Program-made: the position numbers and the translations under genes
Assembly (NCBI GenBank): GCA_029856425.1
Contig: JAHQWZ010000002.1
Location: forward strand, 1 to 38,223
Direction: 5' to 3'
DNA length: 38,223 bases
From: Candidatus Thorarchaeota archaeon
GTDB taxonomy: Archaea; Asgardarchaeota; Thorarchaeia; Thorarchaeales; Thorarchaeaceae
Shown: piece by piece, positions 4,395 to 34,849 of the stretch
How positions within the stretch are numbered: the first letter of the stretch is position 1
Layout of the letters: each line of letters starts with the position of its first letter
The notes under the pieces: generated by a model
The model's input: the letters and a program-made list of their open reading frames with translations, nothing else
Told to the model about the DNA's origin: nothing
Databases searched by the model: none

Positions 4395-6464
4395 ATGTCA
4401 ATCCTTATAGCCAAAACAACGAACGCGCAATCGAGTGCAGAGCCCATGGGCGATGAAAGCGTATTCATAATGGGATTCGACATCCTACCCAGCCAAAGTC
4501 CAAAGTCTAAGAGGAGTCCAAAGTTCGCCTGTGTAATCATGCACGAGGATGTTTTACTCAATGAACACTCTGAAATTTCGCGTGGAACGCTTTTGAAGCT
4601 CATCCGAGAGATTCGTCCTAAATGGCTATGCACCGATAACATATTTGAAATCGTGCCTGACAGCAAATCCCTCTTTCGTTTTGTTGAAAAGATACCCCCA
4701 GAAACTCGGATCGTTCAGGTGACAGGAGTCCCACCCCGTCAAGTTTCTCTGAAAAGACTTGCAAAAAGACATGGATTAAGCATCCGTGGAAAACCAAATC
4801 CCCTTGAGTCTGCCTATCTGGCAGCTCAGTTAGCCCTACTGGGTGTTGGACATAGTTTGGAATGTTTTGGTGAACAGACAGAGGTTAAGATAGCCCGTGG
4901 TAGAAAACCAGGTCGTGGAGGCCAGAGTGCAAATCGTTTCAGACGCAAGGTCCATTCACAAATTCAGCAGATGACAAGGTATATTGAAGACCAACTGAAG
5001 GCTGCAAAGATTGATTATGACATTGATGTAAGAAGTTCGGATTTTGGCTATGCAAGTGCTCGAATAATAGCATATGCGTCTCTGCCCAATATTCGCACAC
5101 TTGTCGAATCTAAACGTGGTGGCGACTTCAAGGTTCTTATATCACCAGTTAGAAAAAGGGTTGAATTCCTTCCTCTTGAGCCAAAACCTATCTCTAGTTC
5201 TCTACGACCAAGATATTTCATTCTAGGAATTGATCCAGGATCCACAGCAGCAATCTGCATGCTCACCTTGGACGGAAGGATATATCGACTAGTAAGTGGG
5301 AAGTCGCTAACTAGAGCTGACATCATTCGGCATGTGTATGAACAAGGAATTCCTGTGATGGTTGCAACTGATGTCACTCCCGTACCACATTTCGTAAAGA
5401 AGATAGCAAGCACGGTGAATGCTGAGCTATATGTACCAAAGCGAGAAATAGCAGTTTCAGACAAACAGGAATTAGCAAGGGAGTTTTCTGAGGGTATCAA
5501 GATACGAAATGCGCACGAACGCGACGCCCTCACAGCAGCAGTCTATGCATATCGTAGCATTTTGCCAAAGCTAGAACAGATCGAACGTAAGATGCGCGAC
5601 GAACAACTAGCAGTCGATAGAAATCAATTGAAAGCACTTGTCATCAAAGGCATGTCGATGCAGGAAGCCACGTCCAGTCTTCTTCATGAAGAGTCAAAGG
5701 AAGTCGATATTGTACCGGAGCATGTCACGGAGGAGGAAACTCTTACACCAGAACGATTTACCTCACTTGTCACTAGGCAAGCAGAAGTTGAAGCAGAGAA
5801 CATTGCGCTCAGTGAAAGAGTTGAAGATTTAGGACGTTTTGTAGAGTTCTTACAGTTTCGGGAGAGCGAACTGGCAGATAGTCTTGATATAGTCACGAAG
5901 GAGAACTATTGGAAGGTAAAAAGAGACAGAGAAATTGTGAAGAAAGAGAATGAACTGAAACAGGTTAGGAGTGAGGTAAGGAACCTCAAGAAAGAGGTCG
6001 AGAAGCTGAACAAGCGCCTAGAGAACCTTAGGGGTGTCAAGCGGCGTGAGATTCGAGGTGACATGCTTGCCATAAAGACGGTTCCCCAATTCACCAGAGA
6101 GAGTATTGAAGAATATATACAGAATGTAGGCCTAAAGCCTGGGGACATCATTCTCTTTGAGGATGCAAGCGGAGGCGGCCCTCAAACAGCTGGGCTGCTG
6201 ATTAATAGGGGTATTCGTGCTGTGATTGTGGACACTCCTCTTTCGCATCTCTCAGAAGAGCAGCTAGTGCAATCCGTAATTCCCGTTATTAATGCGGAAG
6301 AAGTGGAACTGCAGAGAGTTGATGAGTTCGCATTTATCAGTAGAAAGAAGTTTGATAGGCAGCTTCAATCATTCATTGCAAAAGTACGTGAAGAGGCTCG
6401 TCAGAGAGGCGAGGATGAGCTTGTTGAGCTGGTTGAAAGATACCGACGTGAGATAGAACGCTAG
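4395..6464 (+). CDS. DUF460/COG2433-type archaeal protein: RNase H-fold (RuvC/YqgF-like) nuclease domain, long coiled coil and a C-terminal domain
   Basis: The motifs are YFILGIDPGSTAAICMLTLDG, VMVATDVTPVPHFVKK and NAHERDALTAAVYAY. A K/E-rich heptad region spans roughly aa 430-560. Alternative ATG starts are at 4446 and 4470. Confidence 0.6.
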   Translation: MSILIAKTTNAQSSAEPMGDESVFIMGFDILPSQSPKSKRSPKFACVIMHEDVLLNEHSEISRGTLLKLIREIRPKWLCTDNIFEIVPDSKSLFRFVEKIPPETRIVQVTGVPPRQVSLKRLAKRHGLSIRGKPNPLESAYLAAQLALLGVGHSLECFGEQTEVKIARGRKPGRGGQSANRFRRKVHSQIQQMTRYIEDQLKAAKIDYDIDVRSSDFGYASARIIAYASLPNIRTLVESKRGGDFKVLISPVRKRVEFLPLEPKPISSSLRPRYFILGIDPGSTAAICMLTLDGRIYRLVSGKSLTRADIIRHVYEQGIPVMVATDVTPVPHFVKKIASTVNAELYVPKREIAVSDKQELAREFSEGIKIRNAHERDALTAAVYAYRSILPKLEQIERKMRDEQLAVDRNQLKALVIKGMSMQEATSSLLHEESKEVDIVPEHVTEEETLTPERFTSLVTRQAEVEAENIALSERVEDLGRFVEFLQFRESELADSLDIVTKENYWKVKRDREIVKKENELKQVRSEVRNLKKEVEKLNKRLENLRGVKRREIRGDMLAIKTVPQFTRESIEEYIQNVGLKPGDIILFEDASGGGPQTAGLLINRGIRAVIVDTPLSHLSEEQLVQSVIPVINAEEVELQRVDEFAFISRKKFDRQLQSFIAKVREEARQRGEDELVELVERYRREIER

Positions 6465-17999: not shown

Positions 18000-19628
18000 A
18001 TGCGGTGTCCCTTGACGCAAGTTGATAGACGAAATCTGTTAGAGAAGCTAATCAAAGAGGGTTTCCAGATATCTCCTGACGCATTAGAATATGTCCTGAG
18101 CCTGGAATCGCCCATTCATGTAGTAGACTCCATAATCGCTGCAGGCAGAAGACAAACATCACGACCATCGGTCTTATCACGTGATTTCATAGAAATTCTA
18201 TTGAATAACGGAGTCAAAGAATCAGAAACTTCACTTGAGTCAATTGGTAGTCAAATGCATATCGAACCAACTACGCTGTCCGATTCGGAGCCAATCGATG
18301 AAGCGACCTGGTCAATTAAGGTCCTTAAGAGTCCTGATATAGACTCAGTGGGTTCGGAGGGAACTGTAGATGATTTCAGGGCTCTGTTCGTTGATCGATA
18401 CTCTCGAATCAAGGAAATATATGCAGGTCGAATAGACACTCAAGGCGCTATTTCTCCTGCAGAAGCACGAATGCGAGGAACTGACTCAAGACGTTACAGG
18501 CTCCTGCAAAGTGAGGGGCATAGAAGCAAAAGACCACCAAGCCTGATAGTGATTGGAATTGTGAGGAACAAGAAAACCTCTCAATCTGACAACATAATCC
18601 TCGATATCGAGGACTCAGAGGGGTCGATAATCTGTGTAGTTCCTACAAGCATGAAAGGTCCAAATGGCCAGCAGCTGGCTGAGAAGGCGAACTCTGTCCT
18701 TTTGGACGAAATTCTATGCGTTTCGGGATATGTTGACCAAGATGGAAGAATGATTGCAGATGATGTGATCTTCCCTGACATTCCTATGGTCAGAGAGAGT
18801 GGAAGGGCAATGCGCAATGTCTATGCAGCATTCATCTCGGATTTACATTGTGGAAGTAACGAGTTTTTAGAGGACGAATTTGACCACTTCATTAAATGGC
18901 TAGGTGGAACAGATGTAGACGATTCTGAAAAACTCATGGTTAATAGAACCGAGTATCTGTTCATTGCAGGTGACCTAGTAGATGGGATTGGAGTATATCC
19001 AGAGCAGCGAAATGACTTGGCTATACCAAGCATATACGACCAATACGCCCTACTGGCCAGTAAACTTCGTGACCTTCCTGAAAGAATCAAGATTTTGTGC
19101 ATACCTGGGAATCATGATGCATGCAGACAGGCACTTCCAAGACCCCCAATTCCCAAAGAATTTGCAGGACCCCTGTATGACTTAGGTGATCAAATAGTTA
19201 TGCTTGGGGACCCATGTCAAGTAGTTGTAGAAGGAGTAAATTTCATCCTAACTCATGGTGACTCGCTAGACGACTTGGTGACGAATATTCCAGGTGCATC
19301 ATATAAGAAACCAGCAATTCCAATGAAGTCACTCCTTGAGAAGCGCCATCTAGCTCCTCTGTTTGGTGGGAAAACAGAGCTAGCTCCCCTTCATCGAGAT
19401 TGGATGGTCATAGATACACCTCCAGATGTAATTCACTTTGGGCATGCACACCACAATGCAGTGAGTACTCATCGCAGAGTCCAGATAATCAACTCCGGCA
19501 CTTTCCAAGCTCAGACCGATTTCATGCGCAAACAAGGAATTGTGCCTACTCCTGGAATCGTGACTCTCCTCAACTTGAGTACAGGTGCCCCGGAAATCAA
19601 GCTCTTTTACGACATGATTGGATACTGA
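18000..19628 (+). CDS. dp1: DNA polymerase D (Pol II) small subunit DP1, a Mre11-like phosphoesterase / 3'-5' exonuclease
   Basis: The calcineurin-type motifs are FISDLHCGS, IAGDLVDGIGVYP, IPGNHDA, LTHGDS and FGHAHH. There is also an N-terminal DP1 helical domain and an OB region. Confidence 0.9.
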   Translation: MRCPLTQVDRRNLLEKLIKEGFQISPDALEYVLSLESPIHVVDSIIAAGRRQTSRPSVLSRDFIEILLNNGVKESETSLESIGSQMHIEPTTLSDSEPIDEATWSIKVLKSPDIDSVGSEGTVDDFRALFVDRYSRIKEIYAGRIDTQGAISPAEARMRGTDSRRYRLLQSEGHRSKRPPSLIVIGIVRNKKTSQSDNIILDIEDSEGSIICVVPTSMKGPNGQQLAEKANSVLLDEILCVSGYVDQDGRMIADDVIFPDIPMVRESGRAMRNVYAAFISDLHCGSNEFLEDEFDHFIKWLGGTDVDDSEKLMVNRTEYLFIAGDLVDGIGVYPEQRNDLAIPSIYDQYALLASKLRDLPERIKILCIPGNHDACRQALPRPPIPKEFAGPLYDLGDQIVMLGDPCQVVVEGVNFILTHGDSLDDLVTNIPGASYKKPAIPMKSLLEKRHLAPLFGGKTELAPLHRDWMVIDTPPDVIHFGHAHHNAVSTHRRVQIINSGTFQAQTDFMRKQGIVPTPGIVTLLNLSTGAPEIKLFYDMIGY

Positions 19629-19640
19629 ACGCACACGAGC

Positions 19641-20885
19641 TCATAGGACTTCTTCAGCTATCTTGCCAAGTCGAACATCCTCATCGAGGATTATCCCAAT
19701 CTGTTTCCTGCTTACAGCAAGTCGTATCTTCTTTGTACGACCATAGCGTCCTTTTGAGATGACAGTTGTGTTGATCAGTCCTAACATATCAAGTTCTGAG
19801 ATCAAGTCTGAAACACGTCTCTGTGTGAGTGTGTCTAAGGACAATGACTGTGCAATCTCTGAATAGACATTGTAGCATTCACCTGTGAAGATGTCCTTTT
19901 GTCCCTTATTGGCCAATGCATAGACAGAGAAGAGCACTGCTTTAGACTGCATAGGAAGAGTCTTGACAGTTTCTGTTATGGTGTCCCGCTCGATTATCTT
20001 CTGAGCCTCACGAACATGTCCTTGGATTACTTTTTCATCACCACTACGTTCAGCAAGCTCGCCTGCCGTTCTCAAGAGGTCAAGTGCCCTCCTTGCATCA
20101 CCGTGTTCCTGAGCAGCAAGAGCTCCCACAAGGTTGATCACTCCCTCTTCGCCAATAGCATCCCTGTTGAACGCGATTGCCACTCTCTGTTGAAGAATGC
20201 CCTTTAGCTCGACTGCATTATATGGTGCGAATATGACCTCTTCTTCTCCCAACGTCGAGAGGACCCTGGGGTCCAACATCTCTTTGAACTTCAGGTCATT
20301 ACTTATTCCGATGATTGAGATTCGACTTTGTTCTAGTTCTCCATTCATTCTAGTTAATCCGTAGAGAATATCATTACCTTGACCCACGTCTCTTTTCACA
20401 AGTGAATCTACCTCGTCAAGCACGACCACCATTATGTTGGAATCTGAGTCAAGCTTCTTCTTGAAAATGGATCTAATCTCATCAGTCGGCAAACCTGTAA
20501 ATGGCACCTCAGAACCATCCGGCATCCGTGCATCAATGTCTTCACACAGCTGGCGAAGCACTCGGTAGTTAGTCCCAACAATTCGGCAGTTGATATGTGC
20601 AGTCAGTGGAGGGCTGACTCTGCTCTCCTTTGCTTTCTTTACAAGCAGGTCCAAAACATAACGCGCAACAACAGTCTTCCCTGTACCAGTCTTGCCATAG
20701 CAGAGGATGTTTGATGGCGGAGCTCCACGAAGTGTTGGTCCTAGAATCGCACCTATCCGGTTCATTTGCTCATCTCGATAGGGTAGGTCATCAGGCACAT
20801 ATGTCGGTCTCAATGCATTTCTGTCTCTGAAAATGGCTTGGCCTTGGAGGAACTTGTCAAAAAGCTTGTCTAGAGGTTTCTCCAC
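19641..20885 (-). CDS. cdc6: Orc1/Cdc6 replication initiator (AAA+ domain plus winged helix)
   Basis: Walker A is YGKTGTGKT, Walker B is VVLDEVD, sensor and arginine regions are present, and the C-terminal WH is RVSDLISELDMLGLI. It is convergent with dp1, with a 12-nt gap. Confidence 0.9.
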   Translation of the reverse strand: MEKPLDKLFDKFLQGQAIFRDRNALRPTYVPDDLPYRDEQMNRIGAILGPTLRGAPPSNILCYGKTGTGKTVVARYVLDLLVKKAKESRVSPPLTAHINCRIVGTNYRVLRQLCEDIDARMPDGSEVPFTGLPTDEIRSIFKKKLDSDSNIMVVVLDEVDSLVKRDVGQGNDILYGLTRMNGELEQSRISIIGISNDLKFKEMLDPRVLSTLGEEEVIFAPYNAVELKGILQQRVAIAFNRDAIGEEGVINLVGALAAQEHGDARRALDLLRTAGELAERSGDEKVIQGHVREAQKIIERDTITETVKTLPMQSKAVLFSVYALANKGQKDIFTGECYNVYSEIAQSLSLDTLTQRRVSDLISELDMLGLINTTVISKGRYGRTKKIRLAVSRKQIGIILDEDVRLGKIAEEVL

Positions 20886-24034: not shown

Positions 24035-24151
24035 ACTGAGAGGTTCTGTGTTTCTTTAACCGCTACCATGTGAACTTCACAGGTAGACGAGTAGATTTTA
24101 ATGGGTAACACGAATGACAATATGTCCCAGAGAAACTGGAGGCGCGTCGTG

Positions 24152-24913
24152 ATGTTTCATGCAACTCTTGATAGTACTAGTACTTGGAAGCAAATTGTAG
24201 ATGCTCTGGCAACACTCCTGACAGAGGTGCACTTCATCGTATCCGATAGTGGCATAGTCTTGCGACAGCTTGACTCGTCCAAGGCTGCAATGGTTGATCT
24301 AGTTCTGCCTGCTAAGGTTTTCCAAGAGTATAACTGCGATGGCAATTACGATATATGCCTCGGAGTTGACGAGCTTAATAAGGTCAGCAAGCGAATGGCT
24401 GGTGATGATCGCCTCGAGTTCAGGTTGGACGAGGACGAGAATCGATTTGAGATAAAGATGATTGGCCAGGCACAGAGGCAGTTCAAACTCCAGCTCCTGA
24501 CCGCTCCAGATGAACGTACAAAGAAGCCATCCTTGGAGTTTGATGCAAAGGCCGAGATGTTTGCAGACGCGTTCAAGCAGGCAGTGAAAGACATTGGAGT
24601 AGTGTCGAGTCATCTACGAATATCGGCTAGTGGCAAGACATTGACCTTCACAGGCGAAGGTGATACTGGAGAGGCGGAGGTTTCGATGAAGGCATCTGGT
24701 GATGAATCGGTAGTTTTCCATCTCGAGGTGAGTGCCAAGCCTACAGCGATGTATGCACTAAACTACCTCTCTGAAATCGCGAAAGCAATGTCAACAGATA
24801 GTCTCACGCTCCAGTTCAGCGAAAACAAACCTATGCTACTGGAGTTCCCAATCGCAGAGATAGGTAGTATCAGTTTCATTCTGGCACCTCGTGTGGAGCG
24901 TGATCGGAGATAG
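24152..24913 (+). CDS. pcn: DNA polymerase sliding clamp PCNA
   Basis: 253 aa from ATG 24152, with GGAGG just upstream. It aligns by eye along its full length with archaeal PCNA (MFHATLDSTSTWKQIVDALATLL ... SISFILAPRVE). The ORF track opens at 24101. Confidence 0.9.
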   Translation: MFHATLDSTSTWKQIVDALATLLTEVHFIVSDSGIVLRQLDSSKAAMVDLVLPAKVFQEYNCDGNYDICLGVDELNKVSKRMAGDDRLEFRLDEDENRFEIKMIGQAQRQFKLQLLTAPDERTKKPSLEFDAKAEMFADAFKQAVKDIGVVSSHLRISASGKTLTFTGEGDTGEAEVSMKASGDESVVFHLEVSAKPTAMYALNYLSEIAKAMSTDSLTLQFSENKPMLLEFPIAEIGSISFILAPRVERDRR

Positions 24914-25001: not shown

Positions 25002-26420
25002 ATGTCAAATCGCACTTGGGAAACAAGAAGCAAATTCCTACGTCTGACGTTTCAGAACTACTACCAATCAAATCATGCCAATGTAGATGAACCAAACAAG
25101 ATTCACACACGAGAATTCGCATTTGAGGATTGGGAATACACTTGGAGCTGCCCGAAGGGCACGAAGAAGGATGATTCGGGAAATGTAATCAACTATGGAT
25201 GTGACCGTTCAGGTATCGCGTTCAATAGATATTCTTCATGTCCATACTGTGGTTCCACTGACATTATGGTGACCAATTGGACACGTCACATAGGATTTCG
25301 TACACAGAAAGCGCTGCTCAAAGAGTTAGTCGAAGTGGCTCCCCATAGTGTCTATCACTCCGCAGCTTTCTATAATATACCAGTCGCTCGAGACAAGGGA
25401 TGGCAGGGTGCTGAGCTCGTCTTTGATATAGATGCGGACCATCTTGATTCCCCATGCACTAAGGAACATGACTCGTGGAGATGCAATGGCTCAAGCTGTC
25501 TGGAAACAGGCACGGGCCCTCCTCCCACCAATGGCTGTCCAAAGTGTGGAGGGCTGAGCTTCATTACTCGTAATTGGTTATGTGATAAGTGTCTAGAGGA
25601 CGCCAAGAGTGAAACAATAAAGGTTCGTGATGATTTTTTAATCAAAGACTTTGGAATTGATCCTGAATATATTCAGTTAAACTTCAGTGGCCACAGAGGA
25701 TACCATCTCAGAGTTCGTGACCCTCGAGTTTTCCACCTTGATTCGGATGGTCGAACAGAAATTGCGCATTATATTATTGGAATGGGTTTCAGAATTGCAC
25801 CCGCAAAGGAAACTTCTCCAACCGATAGCCATAGAGTAATCATAGTTTCCAAGAATGTGCCCTTACCTACAAAGAACAATCCTCAACTTGACGTACCCGG
25901 TTGGGGCAATCGTGTAGCAGAGGCCATAATCGATTTCATTCGAAACATTGATACTTATGATGGAGAGGAGCGATGGGTTCGTCTGCTCAGAGCAAACAAG
26001 GAAGCTGCAATCAAAGGTCTCATGAGAGACCCTCCTATACTGAGTCCTAAGGTCAAGGGAATAGGGGACAAGTTCTGGCAGGAGATTGCAGTCAAGTCCG
26101 TTGAGTCATTTGGTGGCGAAATCGATGTTCCGGTGACCCATGACATAGGAAGGGTAATTCGCCTGATTGGCAGTCTCAATGGAAAGACCGGTTTTTCGGT
26201 GAAGATTCTGACTCGTGATGAGATTGATCAATTTGATCCATTCAGCGACGCACTTGCAGTTACAAAGGGTATGCTGAAAGTACGATTTGATGGTGTACTC
26301 CCAGTTCCGAAAATCCGGATTGGCCATGAAACCTATGGTCCATTTCATAAGGAAAGTGCGGAGTTACCAATGGAAGTCGCAGTATTCATGTTATGCAAGG
26401 GAGTGGCGACGATTGAGTGA
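25002..26420 (+). CDS. priS: DNA primase small (catalytic) subunit PriS, with an extra N-terminal Cys-rich insertion
   Basis: It has REFAFEDW, the catalytic ELVFDIDADHLD, a zinc knuckle (CTKEHDSWRC ... CPKCGG ... CDKC) and FSGHRGYHLRV. At 472 aa it is longer than typical PriS. Confidence 0.85.
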   Translation: MSNRTWETRSKFLRLTFQNYYQSNHANVDEPNKIHTREFAFEDWEYTWSCPKGTKKDDSGNVINYGCDRSGIAFNRYSSCPYCGSTDIMVTNWTRHIGFRTQKALLKELVEVAPHSVYHSAAFYNIPVARDKGWQGAELVFDIDADHLDSPCTKEHDSWRCNGSSCLETGTGPPPTNGCPKCGGLSFITRNWLCDKCLEDAKSETIKVRDDFLIKDFGIDPEYIQLNFSGHRGYHLRVRDPRVFHLDSDGRTEIAHYIIGMGFRIAPAKETSPTDSHRVIIVSKNVPLPTKNNPQLDVPGWGNRVAEAIIDFIRNIDTYDGEERWVRLLRANKEAAIKGLMRDPPILSPKVKGIGDKFWQEIAVKSVESFGGEIDVPVTHDIGRVIRLIGSLNGKTGFSVKILTRDEIDQFDPFSDALAVTKGMLKVRFDGVLPVPKIRIGHETYGPFHKESAELPMEVAVFMLCKGVATIE

Positions 26421-26424
26421 TAAA

Positions 26425-27018
26425 ATGTACAAGGACATAAGTGATGCGTGGGCCGCTGAAATAGAGAATAAGGAGCTTCAAAATCTTGAAGATCTACGTT
26501 TCAGTAAGATGGCAGACTATCTCTCGAAAATTCGATACGCCTTGACTGAAACCCTTGCTGAGAACCAGCTTCAGGCGGATATGTATACTCAAGAGGCCCT
26601 TAACCTAGAGTTCATGCTCAAGGACCTCCTAATGATGCGTAGGGATAAGATAATCAGAGCTGCATTGGCACAAAGACGCCCTCTTGGTTCAATGATATTA
26701 TCTGAGGAGGAACTCTACAACAGACTTCTCCGAGGATTTGAGGGCCACTCAGACTTTGTAAGAGAGGCTCTCGCAGGACTGTCCTCCTCGACCTTGAAGC
26801 ACCCTACTGAGGCGACAGCCTCTCAGGAAGATGTGATGGACTACGTTATCGTGAGATTTCTACGGGCCATAGACAATCCTATAATCGGGATTGATGAGGT
26901 TACATATGGCCCATTCAAGAAGGAGGACTTGATAACAATCCCCGCAGCCAATGCAAGAGTCTGGCTTAAGGATGGCACTGTGGTGAGAGTCACAACTAAT
27001 GGGGGAGGCCGTGATTAG
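26425..27018 (+). CDS. gins: GINS subunit (Gins51/Gins15 type)
   Basis: ATG 26425 lies 5 nt after the priS stop. It has a helical A-domain and a small beta B-domain (VIVRFLRAIDNPIIGIDEVTYGPFKKEDLITIPAANARVWLKDG). I recall priS-gins15 adjacency as a known archaeal arrangement. Confidence 0.65.
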   Translation: MYKDISDAWAAEIENKELQNLEDLRFSKMADYLSKIRYALTETLAENQLQADMYTQEALNLEFMLKDLLMMRRDKIIRAALAQRRPLGSMILSEEELYNRLLRGFEGHSDFVREALAGLSSSTLKHPTEATASQEDVMDYVIVRFLRAIDNPIIGIDEVTYGPFKKEDLITIPAANARVWLKDGTVVRVTTNGGGRD

Positions 27019-27320
27019 TGGAGGATGGTTCACTATCAAACCAATTGCGAGGAGTGTTACTGCAAATCGAATCATCAAGAGATTCCATCGAAAAAGCATA
27101 TGATAAGTTTCAAATTGCCATAAGCGGGGTGCTCCGTCTTCTTGATGACAATGCCCCAACGCTTGAAAAACTACGAGGAAGTCCTGATGACCTAAAGGCC
27201 TTCGTGTTGAGACTTGTTACCGAGCTAGGTATGGAAACAATCAGCCACTGGGAGTCACTCCAAGCACAAATAGAGCAGATCCTTGTCAACATATCTGAGT
27301 TTCATGACAGAAAATCCTAA
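27018..27320 (+). CDS. Hypothetical small helical protein
   Basis: 100-aa ORF whose GTG start overlaps the gins stop by 1 nt. I recognise no motif. Confidence 0.35.
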   Translation: MEDGSLSNQLRGVLLQIESSRDSIEKAYDKFQIAISGVLRLLDDNAPTLEKLRGSPDDLKAFVLRLVTELGMETISHWESLQAQIEQILVNISEFHDRKS

Positions 27321-27537
27321 GAGAGACATAAACAACCACGTAGACATGAGTCTGAAATTGAAATGGATACTCTACCTCGTGGCTATCATCTGCTGCTTCT
27401 TGGCTATTGTCGGGGGATTGTCCTACCCTCTAATCAATCAAGGTCTCTTGGAAATCATGATGTATGAAGCAGTAGTCTTTCTAGTTACATTTGGGATTCT
27501 TCTTCTAGTCTATAAGAGAGCCCTGCCTGAGACTTAA
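27304..27537 (+). CDS. Hypothetical small membrane protein (2 TM segments)
   Basis: The hydrophobic helices are WILYLVAIICCFLAIVGGL and AVVFLVTFGILLLVY. Possible starts are TTG 27283, ATG 27304 and ATG 27346. Confidence 0.35.
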   Translation: MTENPKRDINNHVDMSLKLKWILYLVAIICCFLAIVGGLSYPLINQGLLEIMMYEAVVFLVTFGILLLVYKRALPET

Positions 27538-27586
27538 TCTGCCTAATGTCCTTGATTCACCCGAAAACGTGTTCCTTCTGCAAACC

Positions 27587-27595
27587 TTTAATATA
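27587..27595 (+). promoter_or_regulatory. TATA-like box upstream of the hdr cluster
   Basis: TTTAATATA lies about 64 nt upstream of the hdrC ATG, in a 121-nt intergenic gap. AGAGGTG (a Shine-Dalgarno-like sequence) lies 8-15 nt upstream of the ATG. Confidence 0.3.
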
Positions 27596-27658
27596 GGTCC
27601 CTAATTCCGCTGTCGCATTCAGTCACTATGTCGGTCATATCCTAGAGGTGCACCCTTC

Positions 27659-28201
27659 ATGACAGAAACGGAAGAGAAGACTGGTCCTCCAGTTACCCTG
27701 ATTGACCCTATTGACATGACAAAGCTGGACGCTAATTTTCGTAGAGATATTAGCAGCATGCCCAATGGTGAGGAGCTATCGGCTTGTTTTGCATGTTCAA
27801 CTTGTACAGCTGCATGTCCCATTGCCAACCAATGGAACTACAAACCGCATCAGCTGATACGCATGATCCTCCTTGGTATGCGTGATGAAGTTCTTTCCAG
27901 TAAGGAGATATGGGAATGTCTGACATGCTTTCAGTGCCAAGAGCGTTGTCCCCAGAACGTGCGTGTCACTGACATATTCTTCGACTGCAAAAACTTGGCG
28001 GCTGAAGAGGGTTATGTTCCTGAGAACATTATTGCCTTAGCAAAGTCATTGGTTGAGAAGGGACAGCTCTATGAGATCATCAATGACTGGGAACGTGAGG
28101 ATCTAGGCCTAGAACCAGAAGTGCCCGGCCTCTCCATAGAGGGCATACAATCAATTCTGAAAGGCACTCGGACACACAAACTTGTGGAGGGCGATGAGTA
28201 A
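27659..28201 (+). CDS. hdrC: Heterodisulfide reductase subunit C-like protein (2x[4Fe-4S])
   Basis: CFACSTCTAACP and CLTCFQCQERCP, at the typical ~180-aa size, directly upstream of hdrB. Confidence 0.85.
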   Translation: MTETEEKTGPPVTLIDPIDMTKLDANFRRDISSMPNGEELSACFACSTCTAACPIANQWNYKPHQLIRMILLGMRDEVLSSKEIWECLTCFQCQERCPQNVRVTDIFFDCKNLAAEEGYVPENIIALAKSLVEKGQLYEIINDWEREDLGLEPEVPGLSIEGIQSILKGTRTHKLVEGDE

Positions 28202-29069
28202 GATGCCAGTCTATAGCTTGTATATGGGCTGCAGCGTTCCAGCCAATTATCCTAATTATGAGGCAGCAATGTTCAAGGTAGCTGAAGCTCTGGGCATGGA
28301 ACTCAATTACCTTGAAGACGTCGCATGCTGTGGCAGCCCCAATCTGCGATCAATTGATAGCTTTGGCTGGCTATTGGTGAATGCACGTACAATCGCTATC
28401 GCTGAGAAGAGCGGCCATGACATTGTGACTCCATGCAACGGTTGTTTTGGATCTCTGAAGGACGTGCTCTATCATCTCAAGCATCACAAGGACGACTTGA
28501 AGAAGATCAACGTCGAACTCGAGAAGATGGGATTGGAATTCAAAGGCACTATCAATGTTCGACACATTATCGAGGCCATGTACACAGACATTGGAATCAA
28601 GGAGATCAAATCGAAGGTGACAAAGCCTCTAGACGGCGTGGGAATTGCAATTCACTATGGTTGCCATCTACTCCGTCCGGTAGATGTGACAGAATTCAAA
28701 CCCGAGGTTTTGCAAGAGATGGTCTATGCCACGGGCGCAACTGTAATCGATTATCCCTTATGGAAGCAATGTTGTGGTGCCACAGTTCTCCCGGTGAATG
28801 AGCAGCTGGCCATCAGACTCGCTCGAGACAAACTCAAGTCAATGAAAGAATCCGGTGCAGTGTTTATCACTGTGGTGTGTCCAGCCTGCGGGAACCAACT
28901 TGATCTCCAGCAGCTGGGCCTGAAAGACTCATATGGCGAGGTCTATGACCTTCCAGTTCTTCTATATCCACAGATTTTGGCATTGGCAATGGGCATGGAT
29001 GAGGAAGATATAGGTCTCAGTATGAACCGTGTTCCTGCTGACCCCATCCTTGATCATCTATCCGGTTGA
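28194..29069 (+). CDS. hdrB: Heterodisulfide reductase subunit B-like protein (two CCG domains)
   Basis: The first CCG domain is GCS ... ACCGSPN ... CNGC. The second is GCH ... QCCGATV ... CPACG. ATG 28194 overlaps the hdrC stop. Confidence 0.85.
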   Translation: MSKMPVYSLYMGCSVPANYPNYEAAMFKVAEALGMELNYLEDVACCGSPNLRSIDSFGWLLVNARTIAIAEKSGHDIVTPCNGCFGSLKDVLYHLKHHKDDLKKINVELEKMGLEFKGTINVRHIIEAMYTDIGIKEIKSKVTKPLDGVGIAIHYGCHLLRPVDVTEFKPEVLQEMVYATGATVIDYPLWKQCCGATVLPVNEQLAIRLARDKLKSMKESGAVFITVVCPACGNQLDLQQLGLKDSYGEVYDLPVLLYPQILALAMGMDEEDIGLSMNRVPADPILDHLSG

Positions 29070-29070
29070 G

Positions 29071-30333
29071 GTGATTCTAGTAGTGACTGGCCCTGTTCTA
29101 GTCATAGGTGCCGGTGTGGCAGGCATGACTGCGGCAGTTGAGTTGGCAGACAACGATGTCAAGACCATCTTGATTGACAGAAAGACAACTATCGGTGGAA
29201 ACGCGCTTGAATTATACAAAGCATTTCCCACAGACGATTGTTTCTACTGCTTTGAAGGTAATAGATGGCGCCCCGGTATTCGAAAATGCTTCTACCGAAG
29301 TGCAATGATTGACCAACCCAATATCGACCTGAAAATCAGTACACGGGTGAAAGGAATCTCAGGAACGCCTGGCACGTTCTTAGTTAATCTTGAGGTCGGC
29401 CCTCAGTATGTAGACCCAAGGAAGTGTACTCTATGTGGTCTTTGTACTGATGCTTCGGAGGCGTTTCATTTGGTATCACCGCAATGTCAGCCACAGGCCG
29501 TAAGCTATAATCCTGAGAGGGCGGACGATGGTGCGAAGAAGGCTGAGGAGGACTGTCCGACAGGAGCAATCAATCTAAGTGCCACTCAGACTGAAGAAAC
29601 AATCACAGTTTCAGACATCGTTATTGCGACTGGCTACCATGAGATGAAGCCCTCAACCATTGATGAATATGGTTATGGGAAACTGCCCAACGTTATCACA
29701 CAGCTTGAGCTTGCACAGATGCTCGATCCAAATGGTGAATCCTCTGGTGCGTTGTTGCGCCCCTCCGATGGAGCTCAAGTCAAGAGTGTGATGATGATTC
29801 AGTGTGTGGGTAGTAGAGACGAGAATTACTATCCATTCTGTTCCAAGATTTGCTGTGTCTTTGCTCTGAAACATGCCAGTATCATATCAAAGGAGCGCAA
29901 CAACTCGAGAGTGAGTGTTGTATACATGGACATTCGGACTTATGATAGGCATGAGAGATATTACCGCGAAACGCGTGATGCTGGAGTGGAGTTCGTTCGA
30001 GGTAGAGTCAGCCGAGTGGAAGCCCACAAGGATGGCACATTGGATGTATACGTCTATGATTCATTACTGAACAAGTATCTCAAGTTCGTAGTGGATCTCC
30101 TGGTGCTCTCATCTGCATTGGAACCACCAGAAGCCAGTAACGAGCTTATCAGCTCACTGGGGTTAAACTCAGCAAGTGGTTATGTAGGCTCTGCTGACCC
30201 ACTCTCTGAGAATGAAGTAGTCGCAGGAGACCATGTTTATGCTTGCGGTGGCGCTCTGGGTCCAGCAGAAGTTCCTGAGAGCGTCAATCAGGCAAGAGCT
30301 GTGGTGAGTAAGATTCTCCAGGGGAGGAAGTGA
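29071..30333 (+). CDS. hdrA: HdrA-like FAD/FeS oxidoreductase, short form (lacks the N-terminal Cys domain and C-terminal ferredoxins)
   Basis: FAD motif VLVIGAGVAGMTAAVELA, FPTDDCFYC, a single ferredoxin-like CTLCGLC ... DCPTGAI, and the HdrA signature MIQCVGSRDENYYPFCSKICC. GTG 29071 lies 2 nt after the hdrB stop and is preceded by GAGG. Confidence 0.75.
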   Translation: MILVVTGPVLVIGAGVAGMTAAVELADNDVKTILIDRKTTIGGNALELYKAFPTDDCFYCFEGNRWRPGIRKCFYRSAMIDQPNIDLKISTRVKGISGTPGTFLVNLEVGPQYVDPRKCTLCGLCTDASEAFHLVSPQCQPQAVSYNPERADDGAKKAEEDCPTGAINLSATQTEETITVSDIVIATGYHEMKPSTIDEYGYGKLPNVITQLELAQMLDPNGESSGALLRPSDGAQVKSVMMIQCVGSRDENYYPFCSKICCVFALKHASIISKERNNSRVSVVYMDIRTYDRHERYYRETRDAGVEFVRGRVSRVEAHKDGTLDVYVYDSLLNKYLKFVVDLLVLSSALEPPEASNELISSLGLNSASGYVGSADPLSENEVVAGDHVYACGGALGPAEVPESVNQARAVVSKILQGRK

Positions 30334-30339
30334 TGAACA

Positions 30340-32505
30340 GTGACCAATAAATCCCCCGTCCTTCTCTGCACATGCGGAAAACAGCTAAAGCTAGACTATG
30401 ACTACTTGGAAACAGAGATTAGCAAGTTGGACTTGGCTGGTTCGGTAACTGTACACGATTTTGGCTGCCAAGATTCAGGACTTGAAACCATAGCAGAACT
30501 GATTGGTGAGAGTGAGGCCAGACTTGTGATAGCTGCATGCACAAGTCAGAAGATACAACCTCGTATTGATCAATACCTCCAATCTCTTGGCAAGGACTCT
30601 TCGAGAATTGCATATGTGAACATCCGAGAGCATTCCGCTTGGGTCCACAAGGACCCCTCTGAGGCATCTAAGAAATCTCTAGACATGATTAGAGGTGCAT
30701 TGGCACGTGTAGAAGATTCAAAATCAATTGTGTCTGAAACGAAAGAGATTCCAAACCATGTGACCGTGATTGGTGGTGGGATTGCCGGAGTTGAAACCGC
30801 GCTCAGCCTCTCAAACTTGGGCTATCGTGTGACTCTGATGGAGCGTGAATCAAGCATTGGTGGTCATGTCGTCCAGCTACCAGTCATTGCTCCTACTGGC
30901 AAGTCTGGGAAGGAAATCTTCAGTAGTCGACTCAAAGCACTTGAAAATGACAAAAACATAGACGTCATGACAAATACAACTGTGAAATTTATTGAAGGCG
31001 AAATGGGCGACTTTTTGGCTCATTATATCTCCCCTGATGATGAAGATGAGAAGACCTTACAGACCTCCGCAATTGTACTAGCAACAGGATTCAAGGAGTT
31101 CAAACCCACAATGATAGATGAATATCATTATGGGAAGAACCCCGATGTTGTGACACAACTCGAGCTCTCTCGGATGTTGACAGAAGATCGCATGGTACGT
31201 CCTTCGGACGGGAAGCCTGTAAATGAGGTCGTAATGGTCCAATGTGTTGGCAGTAGATCTGAGGACTACAAACGGGATTGCAGCAAGCTCTGCTGTACTT
31301 TTGCAATTGATAACTCATTGGAGATTCTTGAGAGGAACCCTGATGCGAACGTGCAGGTTGTGTACATGGACATCCGAGTTCCATTTGAAAACGAGATGAT
31401 ATACAAAGAGTCCAGAGAGCGTGGAGTCGATTACATCCGAGGCCGAATCAGTATGGTCTGGGAGAATGATAATACCACTCACGTTCGTATCTATGATTCA
31501 CTTTTGAACCAGTATCTGGAAACCACCCCCGATCTCGTAGTCCTTTCCTCTGCCATTCTACCTTCAGACGGCGTGGCTGAGCTGTCTGAAACACTTGGTT
31601 ATGCACTTGAAGAAGACGGTCATGTCAAGGATCTTTATGGCAAGCTGAGAAGAACTGAAACACGGAGACGTGGCGTAGTTGCAGTAGGCGCAATCACACG
31701 CCCACAATTTGTCTTTGAGGCTGTCACAGATGCTCAAGCTGCGGCTCTTGTTTTACACAATGAGCTTCATGGAGGTAAAATCGAGAAGGTGGCGCGGGGT
31801 GCCGTTCTCAATGTCGATGACTGCGTGGGTTGTAGTCTCTGCGCACAGCAATGCCCCCGCGGCGTTCCTCTGATGATTGAACAGACAGATGCCGAGGAGG
31901 AGGATGAAGCACAGAAAATCCTCTTCAAAGCAGCAATTGACACTCTGAACTGTCATTCCTGCGGCGTATGCCAAAGCCTTTGCCCCTCAGGTGCGACACA
32001 ACTCAACTTCCTATCAAACTCACAGCTCTGGTCGGAAATAGAGGCTGTTCTTGAAGGGGCTGATCATGAATATCCAATAACGGTCTGCTTCTATTGTGAA
32101 GAGTGTTCTGTATCTACGATAGACATTGTAGGTACACAAAGGATGGAGTATCCTGCTAGCTCACGATTAATTCCTGTTCCATGCGCAGGAAGAGTTTCCA
32201 TTATTGATATCTTGAAGGCTTTTGAGCATGGAGCCAGTACAGTGATGATTGCAGCCTGCGAGAAGGATCGATGTCACATTGGTGGGACTGGTAACGAGAT
32301 TGCCCAAGTCCAAATTGACGTCGCCCGTGATATACTGAATGCTATCGGCTGGAAAGGCGAACGAGTTGACATGTATCGAATGTTCAGTGCTGAGCCTGAC
32401 AGGTTCACAAATGCAATTCGTGAGATGGTGAAGCGAGCTCAGGAGCTTGGCCCCACACCAGTGCATAAAGGAACAGCTGGTAAATGGATGGAGGCGGTTG
32501 AGTGA
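30340..32505 (+). CDS. hdrA: HdrA fused to an MvhD-like domain
   Basis: The N-terminal HdrA Cys domain is LLCTCG ... FGCQ ... IAACTSQ ... VNIREHSAWVH. It also has FAD motif VTVIGGGIAGVETA, VQCVGSRSEDYKRDCSKLCC, and ferredoxins CVGCSLCAQQCP and CHSCGVCQSLCP. The C-terminal MvhD pattern is CFYCEEC ... IPVPCAGRVS ... VMIAACEKDRCH. Confidence 0.8.
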   Translation: MTNKSPVLLCTCGKQLKLDYDYLETEISKLDLAGSVTVHDFGCQDSGLETIAELIGESEARLVIAACTSQKIQPRIDQYLQSLGKDSSRIAYVNIREHSAWVHKDPSEASKKSLDMIRGALARVEDSKSIVSETKEIPNHVTVIGGGIAGVETALSLSNLGYRVTLMERESSIGGHVVQLPVIAPTGKSGKEIFSSRLKALENDKNIDVMTNTTVKFIEGEMGDFLAHYISPDDEDEKTLQTSAIVLATGFKEFKPTMIDEYHYGKNPDVVTQLELSRMLTEDRMVRPSDGKPVNEVVMVQCVGSRSEDYKRDCSKLCCTFAIDNSLEILERNPDANVQVVYMDIRVPFENEMIYKESRERGVDYIRGRISMVWENDNTTHVRIYDSLLNQYLETTPDLVVLSSAILPSDGVAELSETLGYALEEDGHVKDLYGKLRRTETRRRGVVAVGAITRPQFVFEAVTDAQAAALVLHNELHGGKIEKVARGAVLNVDDCVGCSLCAQQCPRGVPLMIEQTDAEEEDEAQKILFKAAIDTLNCHSCGVCQSLCPSGATQLNFLSNSQLWSEIEAVLEGADHEYPITVCFYCEECSVSTIDIVGTQRMEYPASSRLIPVPCAGRVSIIDILKAFEHGASTVMIAACEKDRCHIGGTGNEIAQVQIDVARDILNAIGWKGERVDMYRMFSAEPDRFTNAIREMVKRAQELGPTPVHKGTAGKWMEAVE

Positions 32506-34763
32506 GCGAATCCAAGAGCCTTGACGATATGGCACCAAAACGCAGACGTATGATGGACATGGTCTTGGCACTCGGTGGTCTGAAAGAAGAGTCTGTCATC
32601 CCGCTGAGTAAAGTCAGTGAAGAAATAGCCAATCTTAAGAGCGAGCTAGAACCACTTGCTACCGAAATCCTTGCATTCCCTGATGCCTACTTCGAGCATT
32701 TCCTAGATGCCACAGAGAAGTCTGCTATCATTTCCCGAATCACCAATAAAGGGCTGCTAAAGCAAGCAACATCTTATCTGCAGCAGGCTGTTTCTATCCG
32801 TGACACAGGAGGCACTCGTGGTCTTCTGAATTCGATGAGCAGTGCACTAGAGGTCCTTGAAACCAAAGATGAGATAGAGGATACTGCTGCAGTCAATATC
32901 GAATCCGTTCTGAGCCCCGTATCTGATTTAATCGTACAGATTGAAGACATCGTCACGGGGTATGAGGTTGCTGCAGAAGCCGCTGCTGAATCAGCGCATT
33001 CTGAACTGAAGTCATTGCTCTCCTCGATGTCAGAGGCTGTTTCTGGAATCCAAGGTGATCCCACATCCGCTTTAGATGCTCTTCAGAAGCTGGGAACAAA
33101 GACAAGATATGGACCATTTCTTAGGACTTCGGCTCAAGTCAAGCGAGGGATTCGCGAGGGGCGTATCGATGAGAAGAGAGCGTTACACCTCGTTTCTGAG
33201 AATATACTGATAGAGCTCAGACGTGGAGTAATCATGTTCATCCTGTCCAAGATGGGCTCACGTACAGTCGTTGAAATTAGCAGACTGATGGACTCACATT
33301 CATCCGACATTCAGGCTGCCATAGTAAGTATGATTCAAAGAGGCGAGGTTGAGATGGTTGGTCTCGACGAGGACGCGCCTGTATTCTCACGAGTTCTTGA
33401 AACCGTACCCGATTCTACATTGGTGTTCAAGAGAATACTACAACAGCTCAATGGCATAGGAAAGTCGCTCGAAGGTGACATACACGCCTTTGTTGACCAA
33501 TCAGTAAGAAGAATGGAGTTTCTGCTTGAAAGGCTTCAGAAACTTGGTCAATATGATGAAACGACTCTTGCCGAGGCTCTAAACAGCCTACGTGAAACCG
33601 TTGACCAAGCAACAGAAGCGGTTCTGCAATCCAAGCCCGCTGACAGCTCCGAGGACTTGCGCCTACTTGTTTCTGCAGGTCTTGAGGCTTTTGCAAGATT
33701 CAGACTGAAGATCGCACTCGAAAAGGGTCCTAACCTTGTTTCTGGAACCAATGTCTATGGAGAGAAACTAGACCCAGAAGTCTATGAGAGAATGATGTCA
33801 AGTTATCTGGATAACGAACTTGAACGGGGAACCATTCTAATTCTCATACGTGAACTGGGAGCAATGACTGCAAAGGATCTTGGAGAGAAGACCAACATCC
33901 CCAAAGACCGAATTCTGCAGCATCTGCTTCGAATGAAGAGGGACGAGTTACTCACTTCAGCTGGTGAGAGTCATGGCTATCTTCTCTATGATGTTCCAAG
34001 AACCCCCACAGAGGCAGAGCTCGCAGTTGAAACTGCAAGTTCTCTCGCACTTCAACTCACAGAGGCATCATCCGAATTTGAATCTCTTCTTCAGGAACTG
34101 AGGGCTGAGGACATTGGCAAAGTGGTCAATGCTCTGGACGTCCTATCGAAGGGTCGCGATAAGTTGGTCAAGCTCACGATCGAAGGAAATGTGGTGGGAA
34201 AAGAAATACTCCTGGGGATAGAGGAGAAGATTCGATCAGCCGTGTCACTATCCTACCGCACACGCACCAAAATTCCCAGTACTCGTCCAAAGGTGACATT
34301 GGATGACTTGGCAGAGGTGGACGTTCCATCAGTTCTTGATGAATACAAGGCAATGATGGGCTATGCCCCCTTGCTTGGCTTTGGCACAATTGAGTGGGAT
34401 ATTTCCAAGTGTCTAGGCTGCAAGTCTTGCGAGATTGCATGTCCTGAGGACGCAATTGAACTGAAACCAGTGTTCGAAGTTTCTAAAATCTTTGATATCT
34501 CTGACGAGGCTCTTGACAACCTGCCCGTAAACAGATCGCTCTTCTACAAAACCGTGAAGGGTCTTGCAACTCAAAAGCCAACACGTGATATTGTTCTGGC
34601 AGATGACTCGCCTGGCTTTGGAACAGTCGAAGTTGATCTCTGGTTGTGTGTGGCATGCCGAACATGTGTAAGGCGCTGTCCAGGTCCTGATGAAGGGGCA
34701 CTAGAGCTAGAACTCAAGTGGAGTCTTCCAGAGGTGGTTCGTCAAATCACTAGCAAACATTGA
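32502..34763 (+). CDS. Uncharacterised 753-aa protein: long helical N-terminal region, two winged-helix-like modules and a C-terminal 2x[4Fe-4S] ferredoxin-like domain
   Basis: Its GTG start overlaps the hdrA/mvhD stop (GTGA), with GGAGG upstream. The wHTH-like segments are FILSKMGSRTVVEISRLMDSHSSDIQAAIVSMIQRGEVEMVG (about aa 245-287) and ILILIRELGAMTAKDLGEKTNIPKDRILQHLLRMKRDELL (about aa 445-484). The Cys motifs are CLGCKSCEIACP (aa 637-648) and CVACRTCVRRCP (aa 716-727). Confidence 0.6.
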   Translation: MSESKSLDDMAPKRRRMMDMVLALGGLKEESVIPLSKVSEEIANLKSELEPLATEILAFPDAYFEHFLDATEKSAIISRITNKGLLKQATSYLQQAVSIRDTGGTRGLLNSMSSALEVLETKDEIEDTAAVNIESVLSPVSDLIVQIEDIVTGYEVAAEAAAESAHSELKSLLSSMSEAVSGIQGDPTSALDALQKLGTKTRYGPFLRTSAQVKRGIREGRIDEKRALHLVSENILIELRRGVIMFILSKMGSRTVVEISRLMDSHSSDIQAAIVSMIQRGEVEMVGLDEDAPVFSRVLETVPDSTLVFKRILQQLNGIGKSLEGDIHAFVDQSVRRMEFLLERLQKLGQYDETTLAEALNSLRETVDQATEAVLQSKPADSSEDLRLLVSAGLEAFARFRLKIALEKGPNLVSGTNVYGEKLDPEVYERMMSSYLDNELERGTILILIRELGAMTAKDLGEKTNIPKDRILQHLLRMKRDELLTSAGESHGYLLYDVPRTPTEAELAVETASSLALQLTEASSEFESLLQELRAEDIGKVVNALDVLSKGRDKLVKLTIEGNVVGKEILLGIEEKIRSAVSLSYRTRTKIPSTRPKVTLDDLAEVDVPSVLDEYKAMMGYAPLLGFGTIEWDISKCLGCKSCEIACPEDAIELKPVFEVSKIFDISDEALDNLPVNRSLFYKTVKGLATQKPTRDIVLADDSPGFGTVEVDLWLCVACRTCVRRCPGPDEGALELELKWSLPEVVRQITSKH

Positions 34764-34849
34764 TGCCTAACCACGTCTTTGCCATTTGACAATGGCCTTA
34801 TACCACCTCGTCCTACCAGTGTTAGTTTCAATATCTATGAGGGAGAATA

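Follow-up and report, generated by a model that had tools for sequence, protein, structure and literature searches.

An iron-sulfur and winged-helix protein of the Thorarchaeota hdr operon is most likely a dedicated, non-enzymatic subunit of a soluble Asgard Hdr complex

Soluble Hdr complexes are central flavin-based electron-bifurcating machines of anaerobes, and the functional distinction among them lies in the module docked at MvhD, which may be a hydrogenase, a formate dehydrogenase, Flx or BamGHI. The stretch of DNA analyzed here (38,223 nucleotides (nt) from Candidatus Thorarchaeota archaeon, contig JAHQWZ010000002.1 of assembly GCA_029856425.1; the whole stretch is referred to as the window) contains an hdr cluster next to which no hydrogenase genes are encoded, raising the question of what fills the slot of the donor module. 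The gene immediately downstream of hdrA/mvhD, open reading frame (ORF) 32502-34763, encodes a protein of 753 amino acids (aa), for which we use the shorthand X. An earlier note on this DNA, written from the sequence alone, had described X as an Hdr-coupled orphan and had offered two functions for it: a redox-sensing regulator, or an electron-input subunit or scaffold. The results presented here favor the second over the first, which is unlikely, because part of X is homologous to an extension of MvhD, because the MvhD adaptor BamF provides a precedent, because a flavoprotein replaces part of X in a 972-aa variant, and because the first of the two winged helices is non-basic. The X family occupies the slot expected for the donor module in hydrogenase-less Asgard Hdr systems, being coupled to HdrA/MvhD and common to Thor-, Loki- and Helarchaeota, and X is best classed as an accessory electron-transfer or adaptor subunit of HdrA-type bifurcating complexes, an already known kind of protein with a lineage-specific architecture and an informative domain swap. 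According to the best explanation of the data, it is most likely a non-enzymatic, dedicated subunit of a soluble Asgard HdrA-HdrA/MvhD-HdrB-HdrC complex. The more specific proposal, that X is an iron-sulfur (FeS) adaptor that docks at MvhD and links an electron-input module to HdrA, we regard as having an even chance of being correct.

X is tied to the hdr genes by both position and translation. As the earlier note had stated, the ORF begins with a GTG (32502-32504) that overlaps the TGA stop codon of hdrA/mvhD (32503-32505) to give GTGA, with a GGAGG upstream, and the co-translation proposed there agrees with the finding that 67 of 68 Thorarchaeota loci retain a 4-nt stop/start overlap (ATGA or GTGA). 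Among the 69 Thorarchaeota species loci with enough upstream sequence, the C-terminus of HdrA/MvhD lies at most 120 nt upstream of the start of X in 67. Two exceptions to the synteny, a 2.7-kb insertion between hdrA/mvhD and X in locus L076 and a rearrangement in L058, leave the overall pattern unaltered. The order in Helarchaeota and Lokiarchaeota is different (two giant fused-HdrA proteins, FlpD, a 93-aa coiled coil, hdrA, hdrA/mvhD, X, hdrC, hdrB), with X in mid-operon, still immediately after the MvhD-bearing gene. Kept through a change in gene order, at 21-25% identity, this adjacency argues strongly for X as a component of the Hdr system. Co-location combined with translational coupling across distant lineages serves as an operational test for a subunit of HdrABC-MvhD, and X displays both; the genome survey of hdr linkage that had been proposed as a check returned strong conservation.

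The term orphan, on the other hand, proved to be wrong. A word-indexed search returned at least 250 homologues of X, nearly all of 735-760 aa and from Thorarchaeota or 'Promethearchaeota' metagenome-assembled genomes (MAGs), annotated at most as '4Fe-4S dicluster domain-containing protein' or, by JGI pipelines, as 'ferredoxin/MarR'. HMMER, run exhaustively against 1.84 billion cluster representatives, gave only 65 matches, and full-length relatives were found in Helarchaeota and Lokiarchaeota at 23-27% identity. Judged by these searches, only Thor-, Loki- and Helarchaeota have the complete architecture. Scanning GTDB with one genome per species identified 86 relatives, the best 80 of which were kept and represent 78 loci, mostly with Thorarchaeota or Promethearchaeota titles, together with one Hermodarchaeota-labelled MAG and other archaeal MAGs. 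The family is large and nearly universal among the Thorarchaeota species sampled. The literature on Asgard metabolism and Hdr diversity, as searched, lists HdrABC and MvhD genes and does not mention X.

As a whole, X was assigned to no characterized family in searches of Pfam, NCBIfam and the PDB (phmmer), which recognized the ferredoxin domain alone. In the same libraries nothing beyond generic Fer4 matches placed it with MvhA/G, FdhA/B, FlxA/B/C, FrhB-like or QmoC proteins, in agreement with the earlier view that it resembles no known Hdr, Mvh, Flx or Qmo subunit. An AlphaFold2 model built from a 22-sequence alignment (mean pLDDT 73.5, pTM 0.41) displayed N-terminal helices (residues 12-218), a winged helix (224-297), further helices (304-413), a second winged helix (425-497), a helical hairpin (504-590), a disordered segment (592-622) and a ferredoxin-like domain (626-751). 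The N-terminal helices, linkers and two winged-helix segments that had been read from the sequence are all present in this model, and both of the latter fold as winged helices, with additional backing from hhalign and Foldseek. By hhalign, no repeat linking the N-terminal helices to the winged-helix units was detected (probability below 1%), and no transmembrane segment was found, as had been noted (top Kyte-Doolittle 19-residue mean, 1.35). The net charge is -32 in Thorarchaeota, with -14 across aa 1-204, the least conserved part of the protein, while the FRLK helix, winged helix 2 with its wing (YxLYDVPR), the linker and the ferredoxin domain are the best conserved. A candidate docking peptide close to the N-terminus has nearly invariant K13 and R14, as well as M20, L24 and G26 that are invariant across Thorarchaeota and Helarchaeota; in this region pLDDT falls below 50 at residues 1-5 and 23-33.

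The best Foldseek matches to the whole model were RPC62/C82 of RNA polymerase III and PCI proteins (5afq_B, E 3.7e-4). These proteins, the latter being PCI-domain lid subunits, resemble X as protein scaffolds in which helices are interspersed with several winged helices. The matches had TM-scores of 0.12-0.19 and no sequence similarity, and membership of X in an RPC62/PCI family was dropped, given TM-scores below 0.2, leaving an architectural analogy only. A separate model of aa 385-753 brought no gain in confidence (pLDDT 68.2) and returned generic winged-helix and ferredoxin matches, plus PFOR and FwdF.

The two winged-helix units, each with a preceding long helix, arose by internal duplication (hhalign 97.4%, E 1.3e-11, aa 221-309 versus 422-509). 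Their elements in the model are H224-251/H256-263/H267-279/E283-289/E292-297 for the first and H425-452/H457-463/H468-480/E485-490/E493-497 for the second. Winged helix 1 carries a charge of -1 on its recognition helix and -3 on its wing; in winged helix 2 the recognition helix, KDRILQHLLRMKR, is conserved with a charge of +4, and the wing has a charge of -1. Within aa 385-500, F400, R401, K403, E407, K408, P410, E441, R442, G443, G488, Y493 and R500 are invariant or nearly so. Winged helix 2 is similar to ArsR/SmtB and MarR regulators in fold, profile and basic recognition helix: its profile matched ArsR/HlyU structures in the PDB (E 9e-7), and its sub-model matched Z-alpha and ArsR-type domains with TM-scores of 0.8-0.89 (Foldseek). 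These likenesses, along with the fact that regulators combining FeS clusters with winged helix-turn-helix (wHTH) domains are an established class and with the JGI label 'ferredoxin/MarR', are what speaks for X as a redox-sensing transcription factor, whose clusters would sense and whose winged helices would bind the hdr promoter. Several properties of the protein argue against this. Pfam wHTH families at aa 445-485 score below their gathering thresholds (MarR_2, 20.7 versus 27; TrmB, 19.0 versus 25.6; HTH_5, 14.6 versus 22), and, unlike the ArsR/SmtB and MarR regulators, X is an acidic, multi-domain protein of 753 aa in an enzyme operon, with a non-basic winged helix 1 and with a winged-helix module that is fused to redox adaptors elsewhere.

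The two CxxCxxCxxxCP motifs described by the earlier note were confirmed, and their eight predicted cluster-ligand Cys are invariant in 22 sequences that span 21-100% identity. Pfam Fer4_7 matches X at aa 636-727 with 39.4 bits against a cut-off of 27, and Fer4_6, Fer4, Fer4_2, Fer4_9 and Fer4_8 likewise exceed their thresholds. The spacer between the motifs is indeed unusually long, at 68 rather than the estimated 66 or so residues, and forms an insert of helices in which an LPxNR motif is conserved; the compact 20-35-residue motif spacing of bacterial-type 2x[4Fe-4S] ferredoxins is not found in X, indicating a variant of the fold. The two ferredoxin units are homologous to each other (hhalign 98.1%, E 9.7e-14).

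Evidence on the role of the winged helices came from proteins outside the X family. By phmmer, small MvhD/FlpD proteins match X aa ~361-500 with their C-terminal extension; this part of X holds the amphipathic FRLK helix, the NVYGEKLD motif and winged helix 2. The module profile A2 (aa 385-505) identified 62 proteins, 25 with a recorded FlpD/MvhD domain N-terminal to the module; the remaining matches are proteins of 93-194 aa with no FlpD on record. The three genomic contexts of the module, from one Planctomycetota MAG and two unclassified metagenome contigs, are all Hdr-type clusters, with the order hdrC-hdrB-hdrA (~1100 aa)-[MvhD-wHTH or MvhD + wHTH]-hdrA-like (~1000 aa)-MvhD-FlxC/B/A-like. 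At L091 6740-7498, an MvhD and a 'free' winged-helix ORF constitute a single frame with a TGA at a conserved Cys (FVSG-TGA-HLGECHY), and the product is probably a selenocysteine-containing MvhD-wHTH adaptor that was miscalled as two genes. A 449-aa 'short X', in which a single winged helix and a coiled coil are combined with the same split ferredoxin, is encoded immediately after a free 130-aa MvhD gene that itself lies behind an HdrA-like gene, and fusions of MvhD to the split ferredoxin were found in Bathyarchaeia-type metagenomes. In unrelated Hdr clusters the homologous module is built covalently into MvhD adaptors for electron transfer, which argues against a regulatory role for X.

A structural counterpart has been described for BamF, the MvhD adaptor of class II benzoyl-CoA reductase (BCRII) of Geobacter metallireducens, which is more than 100 aa longer than usual and whose winged-helix motif is a protein-docking element that contacts the input module and not DNA (2026 cryo-EM preprint). 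Our comparison of X with BamF follows the description in the preprint, and the sequence homology was established with the metagenomic MvhD-wHTH proteins, the C-terminal extension of which is homologous to X aa 385-505. In BamF and the MvhD-wHTH proteins, as would also hold for the X system, a winged helix adjoins MvhD in an HdrA-type bifurcating complex, that of BamF forming the interface to the electron-input module. Unlike the BamF type, X has no MvhD of its own (Pfam detects no FlpD/MvhD domain within it), the domain being instead the C-terminus of the preceding HdrA/MvhD protein, and X has a duplicated winged helix, an N-terminal helical part of ~220 aa and a 2x[4Fe-4S] domain. Given the description of BamF, a winged helix next to MvhD is a precedented protein-docking device in Hdr-type machines, and the BCRII interface likewise counts against X as a transcription factor. 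By these results, the docking motif described this year in BCRII appears widespread, as a building block of bacterial and archaeal Hdr-like clusters.

A further indication of how X is organized functionally came from a 972-aa relative (P0123/P0200) encoded in six Thorarchaeota GTDB species (L080-L085), as well as in the separately obtained loci L008 and L009. The locus order is PCNA-PCNA-primase-GINS-x-hdrC-hdrB-hdrA-hdrA/mvhD-[972]-ACAD-cupin, where ACAD is acyl-CoA dehydrogenase. An assembly chimera was ruled out as the origin of this protein, since it is present on at least 10 contigs from several independent MAGs and six GTDB species with constant synteny. The variant retains X aa 1-204 (36% identity), including the N-terminal peptide, and aa 417-752 (62% identity), and in it aa 205-416, that is, winged helix 1 and the helices that follow, are exchanged for a Fer4_20 + Pyr_redox_2 module. 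This module is an NfnB/GltD-type NAD(P)H flavoprotein with PDB matches at E 1e-121 to 1e-63, among them the NADPH module of a Mo-oxidoreductase (9bov_A, E 1e-121), NfnA of Nfn-Bfu (9n5u_A, 4.6e-119), NfnI-L and GltD. The junction of the swap falls just before the NVYGEK motif. The retained parts define a conserved core, made up of the N-terminal peptide and, in the conserved half of X (aa ~385-753), the winged-helix module of MvhD type, the helical hairpin and the ferredoxin domain. A variable center that accepts an NAD(P)H-oxidizing enzyme is the behavior expected of an electron-input socket and not of a transcription factor; winged helix 1 is evidently dispensable when the enzyme module takes its place. 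With its NAD(P)H flavoprotein module the 972-aa variant would be a functional analogue of FlxA-C, an analogy that draws in part on established knowledge, and the variant predicts an NAD(P)H-dependent, ferredoxin-reducing Hdr.

Based on the data presented above, we infer that X contacts MvhD and passes electrons toward it. Winged helix 2, and perhaps the N-terminal peptide, would anchor X beside the MvhD domain of HdrA/MvhD, and aa ~30-384 (the helices and winged helix 1) would provide a docking or scaffold surface for a donor. The two [4Fe-4S] clusters of X would then pass single electrons from an external donor module to the [2Fe-2S] cluster of MvhD, which in turn would supply the bifurcating FAD of an HdrA/HdrA' heterodimer, with HdrBC and the ferredoxin site serving as outputs, as in Mvh-, Fdh- and Flx-Hdr complexes. 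NAD(P)H would be the donor in the 972-aa form, and the complex would work as an NAD(P)H-dependent Hdr, by analogy with FlxABCD-HdrABC. For the 753-aa form, the acidic scaffold of helices and winged helix 1 may recruit the donor, which raises the question of what docks there. Like FlxABCD of the Desulfovibrio FlxABCD-HdrABC complex and like other MvhD-docked input modules (MvhAG, FdhAB), X is encoded together with hdrABC and an MvhD-like adaptor and would deliver mid-potential electrons through FeS clusters. It differs from the Flx, Mvh and Fdh subunits in having no sequence similarity to them beyond generic Fer4 motifs and, in the 753-aa form, no substrate-oxidizing domain of any kind.

Several points weigh against X as an adaptor at MvhD. 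The nearest solved relatives of its ferredoxin domain are the polyferredoxins FwdF and MvhB, and in methanogens the docking site of these proteins is the HdrA ferredoxin domain, which belongs to the low-potential output side, and not MvhD (PMC13518236). The confidence of the models is moderate (pLDDT 68-74, pTM 0.36-0.41), making inter-domain geometry unreliable. Finally, the basic and conserved recognition helix of winged helix 2 would be compatible with nucleic-acid binding.

In a different proposal, X would be a tethered subunit of polyferredoxin type that serves as an output, docking at the HdrA ferredoxin domain and carrying the low-potential bifurcated electrons to a partner enzyme recruited by the scaffold. 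We consider this unlikely. The profile of the ferredoxin domain gave FwdF (9sw6_H, E 1e-23; 5t5i_F, E 2e-22) and MvhB (9sw6_G, E 6e-23) as its top PDB chains, scores that are inflated by many repeated motif matches; Foldseek also found FwdF, and the NCBIfam polyferredoxin scores were weak (VhuB, 22.2 bits versus a cut-off of 600; FwdF, 18.2 versus 375). In the Methanococcus maripaludis super-assembly an extended internal hairpin of VhuB binds the ferredoxin domain of HdrA (PMC13518236), and X likewise has a large insert between its cluster motifs. X shares with the polyferredoxins VhuB/MvhB and FwdF/FmdF, which in methanogens act as FeS wires alongside Hdr and have a structural or bridging function, a repeat unit made of a strand followed by CxxCxxCxxxCP. 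These proteins, however, consist of six to eight two-cluster domains with 12-16 clusters, compared to the one such domain and two clusters of X, and do not have its long helical and winged-helix body. Moreover, the X gene consistently adjoins the MvhD-bearing gene, and in other systems it is MvhD, and not HdrA, to which the winged-helix module is fused. At ~-320 mV, the NAD(P)H module carried by the 972-aa variant would also suit a mid-potential input better than a -500 mV output, an argument that follows from established bifurcation energetics.

Returning to X as an input adaptor at MvhD, a bolder extension, which we think quite doubtful, is that these proteins define an Asgard-specific Hdr class, not recognized before, with a swappable input socket, in which the scaffold recruits a dehydrogenase, possibly ACAD, and in one sub-lineage an NAD(P)H module has been hard-wired. 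If this were true, flavin-based bifurcation in Thorarchaeota would be coupled directly to the redox chemistry of fatty acids or acyl-CoA, or to NAD(P)H, with neither a hydrogenase nor an electron transfer flavoprotein (ETF) involved, which would bear on the disposal of reducing equivalents by Asgard archaea in syntrophy models of eukaryogenesis.

In a coupling of the Hdr complex to the neighboring ACAD, X would take the place of ETF, with the enoyl-CoA/acyl-CoA couple as bifurcation or confurcation partner in Thorarchaeota. The ACAD gene follows X in 69 of 70 Thorarchaeota loci, starting 70-170 nt past the last aligned X codon, and there are no ETF genes within the window; furthermore, the abstract of the BCRII preprint gives ETF as the acceptor of the HdrBC-like branch, so that Hdr-like modules can meet ETF or ACAD. 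Nevertheless, this coupling seems to us improbable: ACAD is absent from the X-containing clusters of Lokiarchaeota and Helarchaeota, the spacer between X and ACAD has a TATA-like element and a Shine-Dalgarno site of its own that suggest separate transcription, and the 972-aa NAD(P)H variant retains its ACAD neighbor, which implies that ACAD is no alternative to a built-in donor. Least probable of all, and very much so, is the transcription factor introduced above, since X is translationally coupled within a structural operon (between hdrA/mvhD and hdrCB in Lokiarchaeota and Helarchaeota) and since an alignment of the hdrC BRE/TATA region (BRE, B recognition element) from 58 loci has no conserved operator-like palindrome, only the BRE/TATA block itself, which is weak negative evidence against autoregulation.

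The coordinates of X, its parts and its neighbors are collected in the table. The HdrA/MvhD fusion has an HdrA core followed by a 2x[4Fe-4S] domain (aa 489-552) and FlpD/MvhD (aa 582-704), and the short HdrA matches NCBIfam HdrA2 at model positions 137-556 (E 1.8e-83), below the curated cut-off. The two hdrA genes are in one frame, with TGA TGA ACA and then the GTG start between them (window 30331-30342); a selenocysteine read-through that would fuse them was rejected in view of the tandem TGA TGA and of the Helarchaeota and Lokiarchaeota genes, which overlap out of frame. The candidate promoter sequence upstream of hdrC occurs once in the window, and a block, tTCTGcAAACTTTTAATAT, is kept in the alignment of orthologous hdrC upstream regions; this BRE/TATA-like block is likely the operon promoter, and a GGTG Shine-Dalgarno site precedes the hdrC ATG. 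In 73 aligned spacers between X and ACAD the block tgCc.tTT.g.AA.tGACTTATAC is conserved and a GAGGGAG is invariant, and the conserved element is possibly a promoter of the ACAD gene, an operator or a hairpin. Beyond ACAD, a cupin gene also lies downstream of X.

Table. Coordinates of X, its domains and the surrounding features (positions in the window unless a locus is named)
Feature	Position	Strand	Basis or remark
Candidate archaeal promoter of the hdr operon: BRE-like CTGCAAAC + TATA box TTTAATAT	27578..27597	+	~65 nt upstream of the hdrC ATG
hdrC, 180 aa, 2x[4Fe-4S]	27659..28201	+	Pfam Fer4_8/Fer4_17; syntenic in Thorarchaeota loci
hdrB, 295 aa, two CCG domains	28182..29069	+	Pfam CCG, E 2e-30
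Short hdrA paralogue, 434 aa, FAD/TrxR-like core	29029..30333	+	NCBIfam HdrA2
hdrA/mvhD fusion, 721 aa	30340..32505	+	Pfam FlpD, E 6.7e-33; NCBIfam HdrA2, E 1.6e-141
GGAGG, Shine-Dalgarno-like site	32490..32494	+	7 nt upstream of the GTG of X; read from the sequence
X, 753 aa, putative Hdr-operon FeS adaptor protein	32502..34763	+	GTG start
Conserved N-terminal peptide, aa 9-26, APKRRRMMDMVLALGG	32526..32579	+	candidate docking peptide
Acidic N-terminal helical region, aa 35-218	32604..33155	+	AlphaFold2 helices
Winged helix 1, aa 224-297, recognition helix SSDIQAAIVSMIQ non-basic	33171..33392	+	AlphaFold2, hhalign, charge
Helical linker, aa 304-384	33411..33653	+	AlphaFold2 model
Amphipathic helix (FARFRLK) + NVYGEKLD motif + winged helix 2, aa 385-500	33654..34001	+	homologous to the long-MvhD C-terminal extension
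Helical hairpin / coiled coil, aa 504-590	34011..34271	+	structure models
Polyferredoxin-type 2x[4Fe-4S] domain, two GFGxI-x5-CxxCxxCxxxCP units	34377..34760	+	Pfam Fer4_7; hhalign
First cluster motif, C637, C640, C643, C647, P648	34410..34445	+	C-x2-C-x2-C-x3-C-P, invariant
Second cluster motif, C716, C719, C722, C726, P727	34647..34682	+	C-x2-C-x2-C-x3-C-P, invariant
Imperfect palindrome GCCATTTGACAATGGC, then TATA-like CTTATAC, X-ACAD spacer	34781..34803	+	spacer alignment
Acyl-CoA dehydrogenase (ACAD), 399 aa	34850..36049	+	Pfam; directly downstream of X
972-aa variant gene	L008 10001-12919		orthologous position

Several further features of these loci were also observed. The insertion in L076 may be a mobile element and includes an unrelated gene (4587-6158, minus strand) for a 523-aa protein with ~8 tandem HTH-like repeats and a Cys/His-rich C-terminus. 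The giant fused HdrA-dimer proteins upstream in the Lokiarchaeota and Helarchaeota clusters are of ~1020-1170 aa, and the 93-aa ORF conserved in these clusters lies just upstream of the short hdrA (L005 6003-6284, L010 6314-6595); it was considered as a free form of the winged-helix module and ruled out, being a K/E-rich coiled coil. A free-standing FlpD/MvhD gene of 136 aa is located a few kb downstream in several Thorarchaeota loci (L001 16402-16812, L003 5783-6193, L008 20351-20761) and is not present in the window.

Between GINS and the hdr promoter, at 27018-27537 of the window, lie two small ORFs (100 and 84 aa) without a family match, of which the 84-aa ORF has hydrophobic stretches and, by eye, looks membrane-spanning; an ORF of 100 aa recurs at the same position in related loci. 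The hdr operon is surrounded by a block of information-processing genes (628-27018) that encodes NurA/HerA, Kae1/Bud32, ribosomal proteins S15 and S3Ae, the small subunit of PolD (18000-19628), Orc1/Cdc6 (19641-20885, minus strand), Rrp4, TFS, PCNA (24101-24913), primase (25002-26420) and GINS51, and the primase-GINS-hdr synteny is kept across Thorarchaeota.

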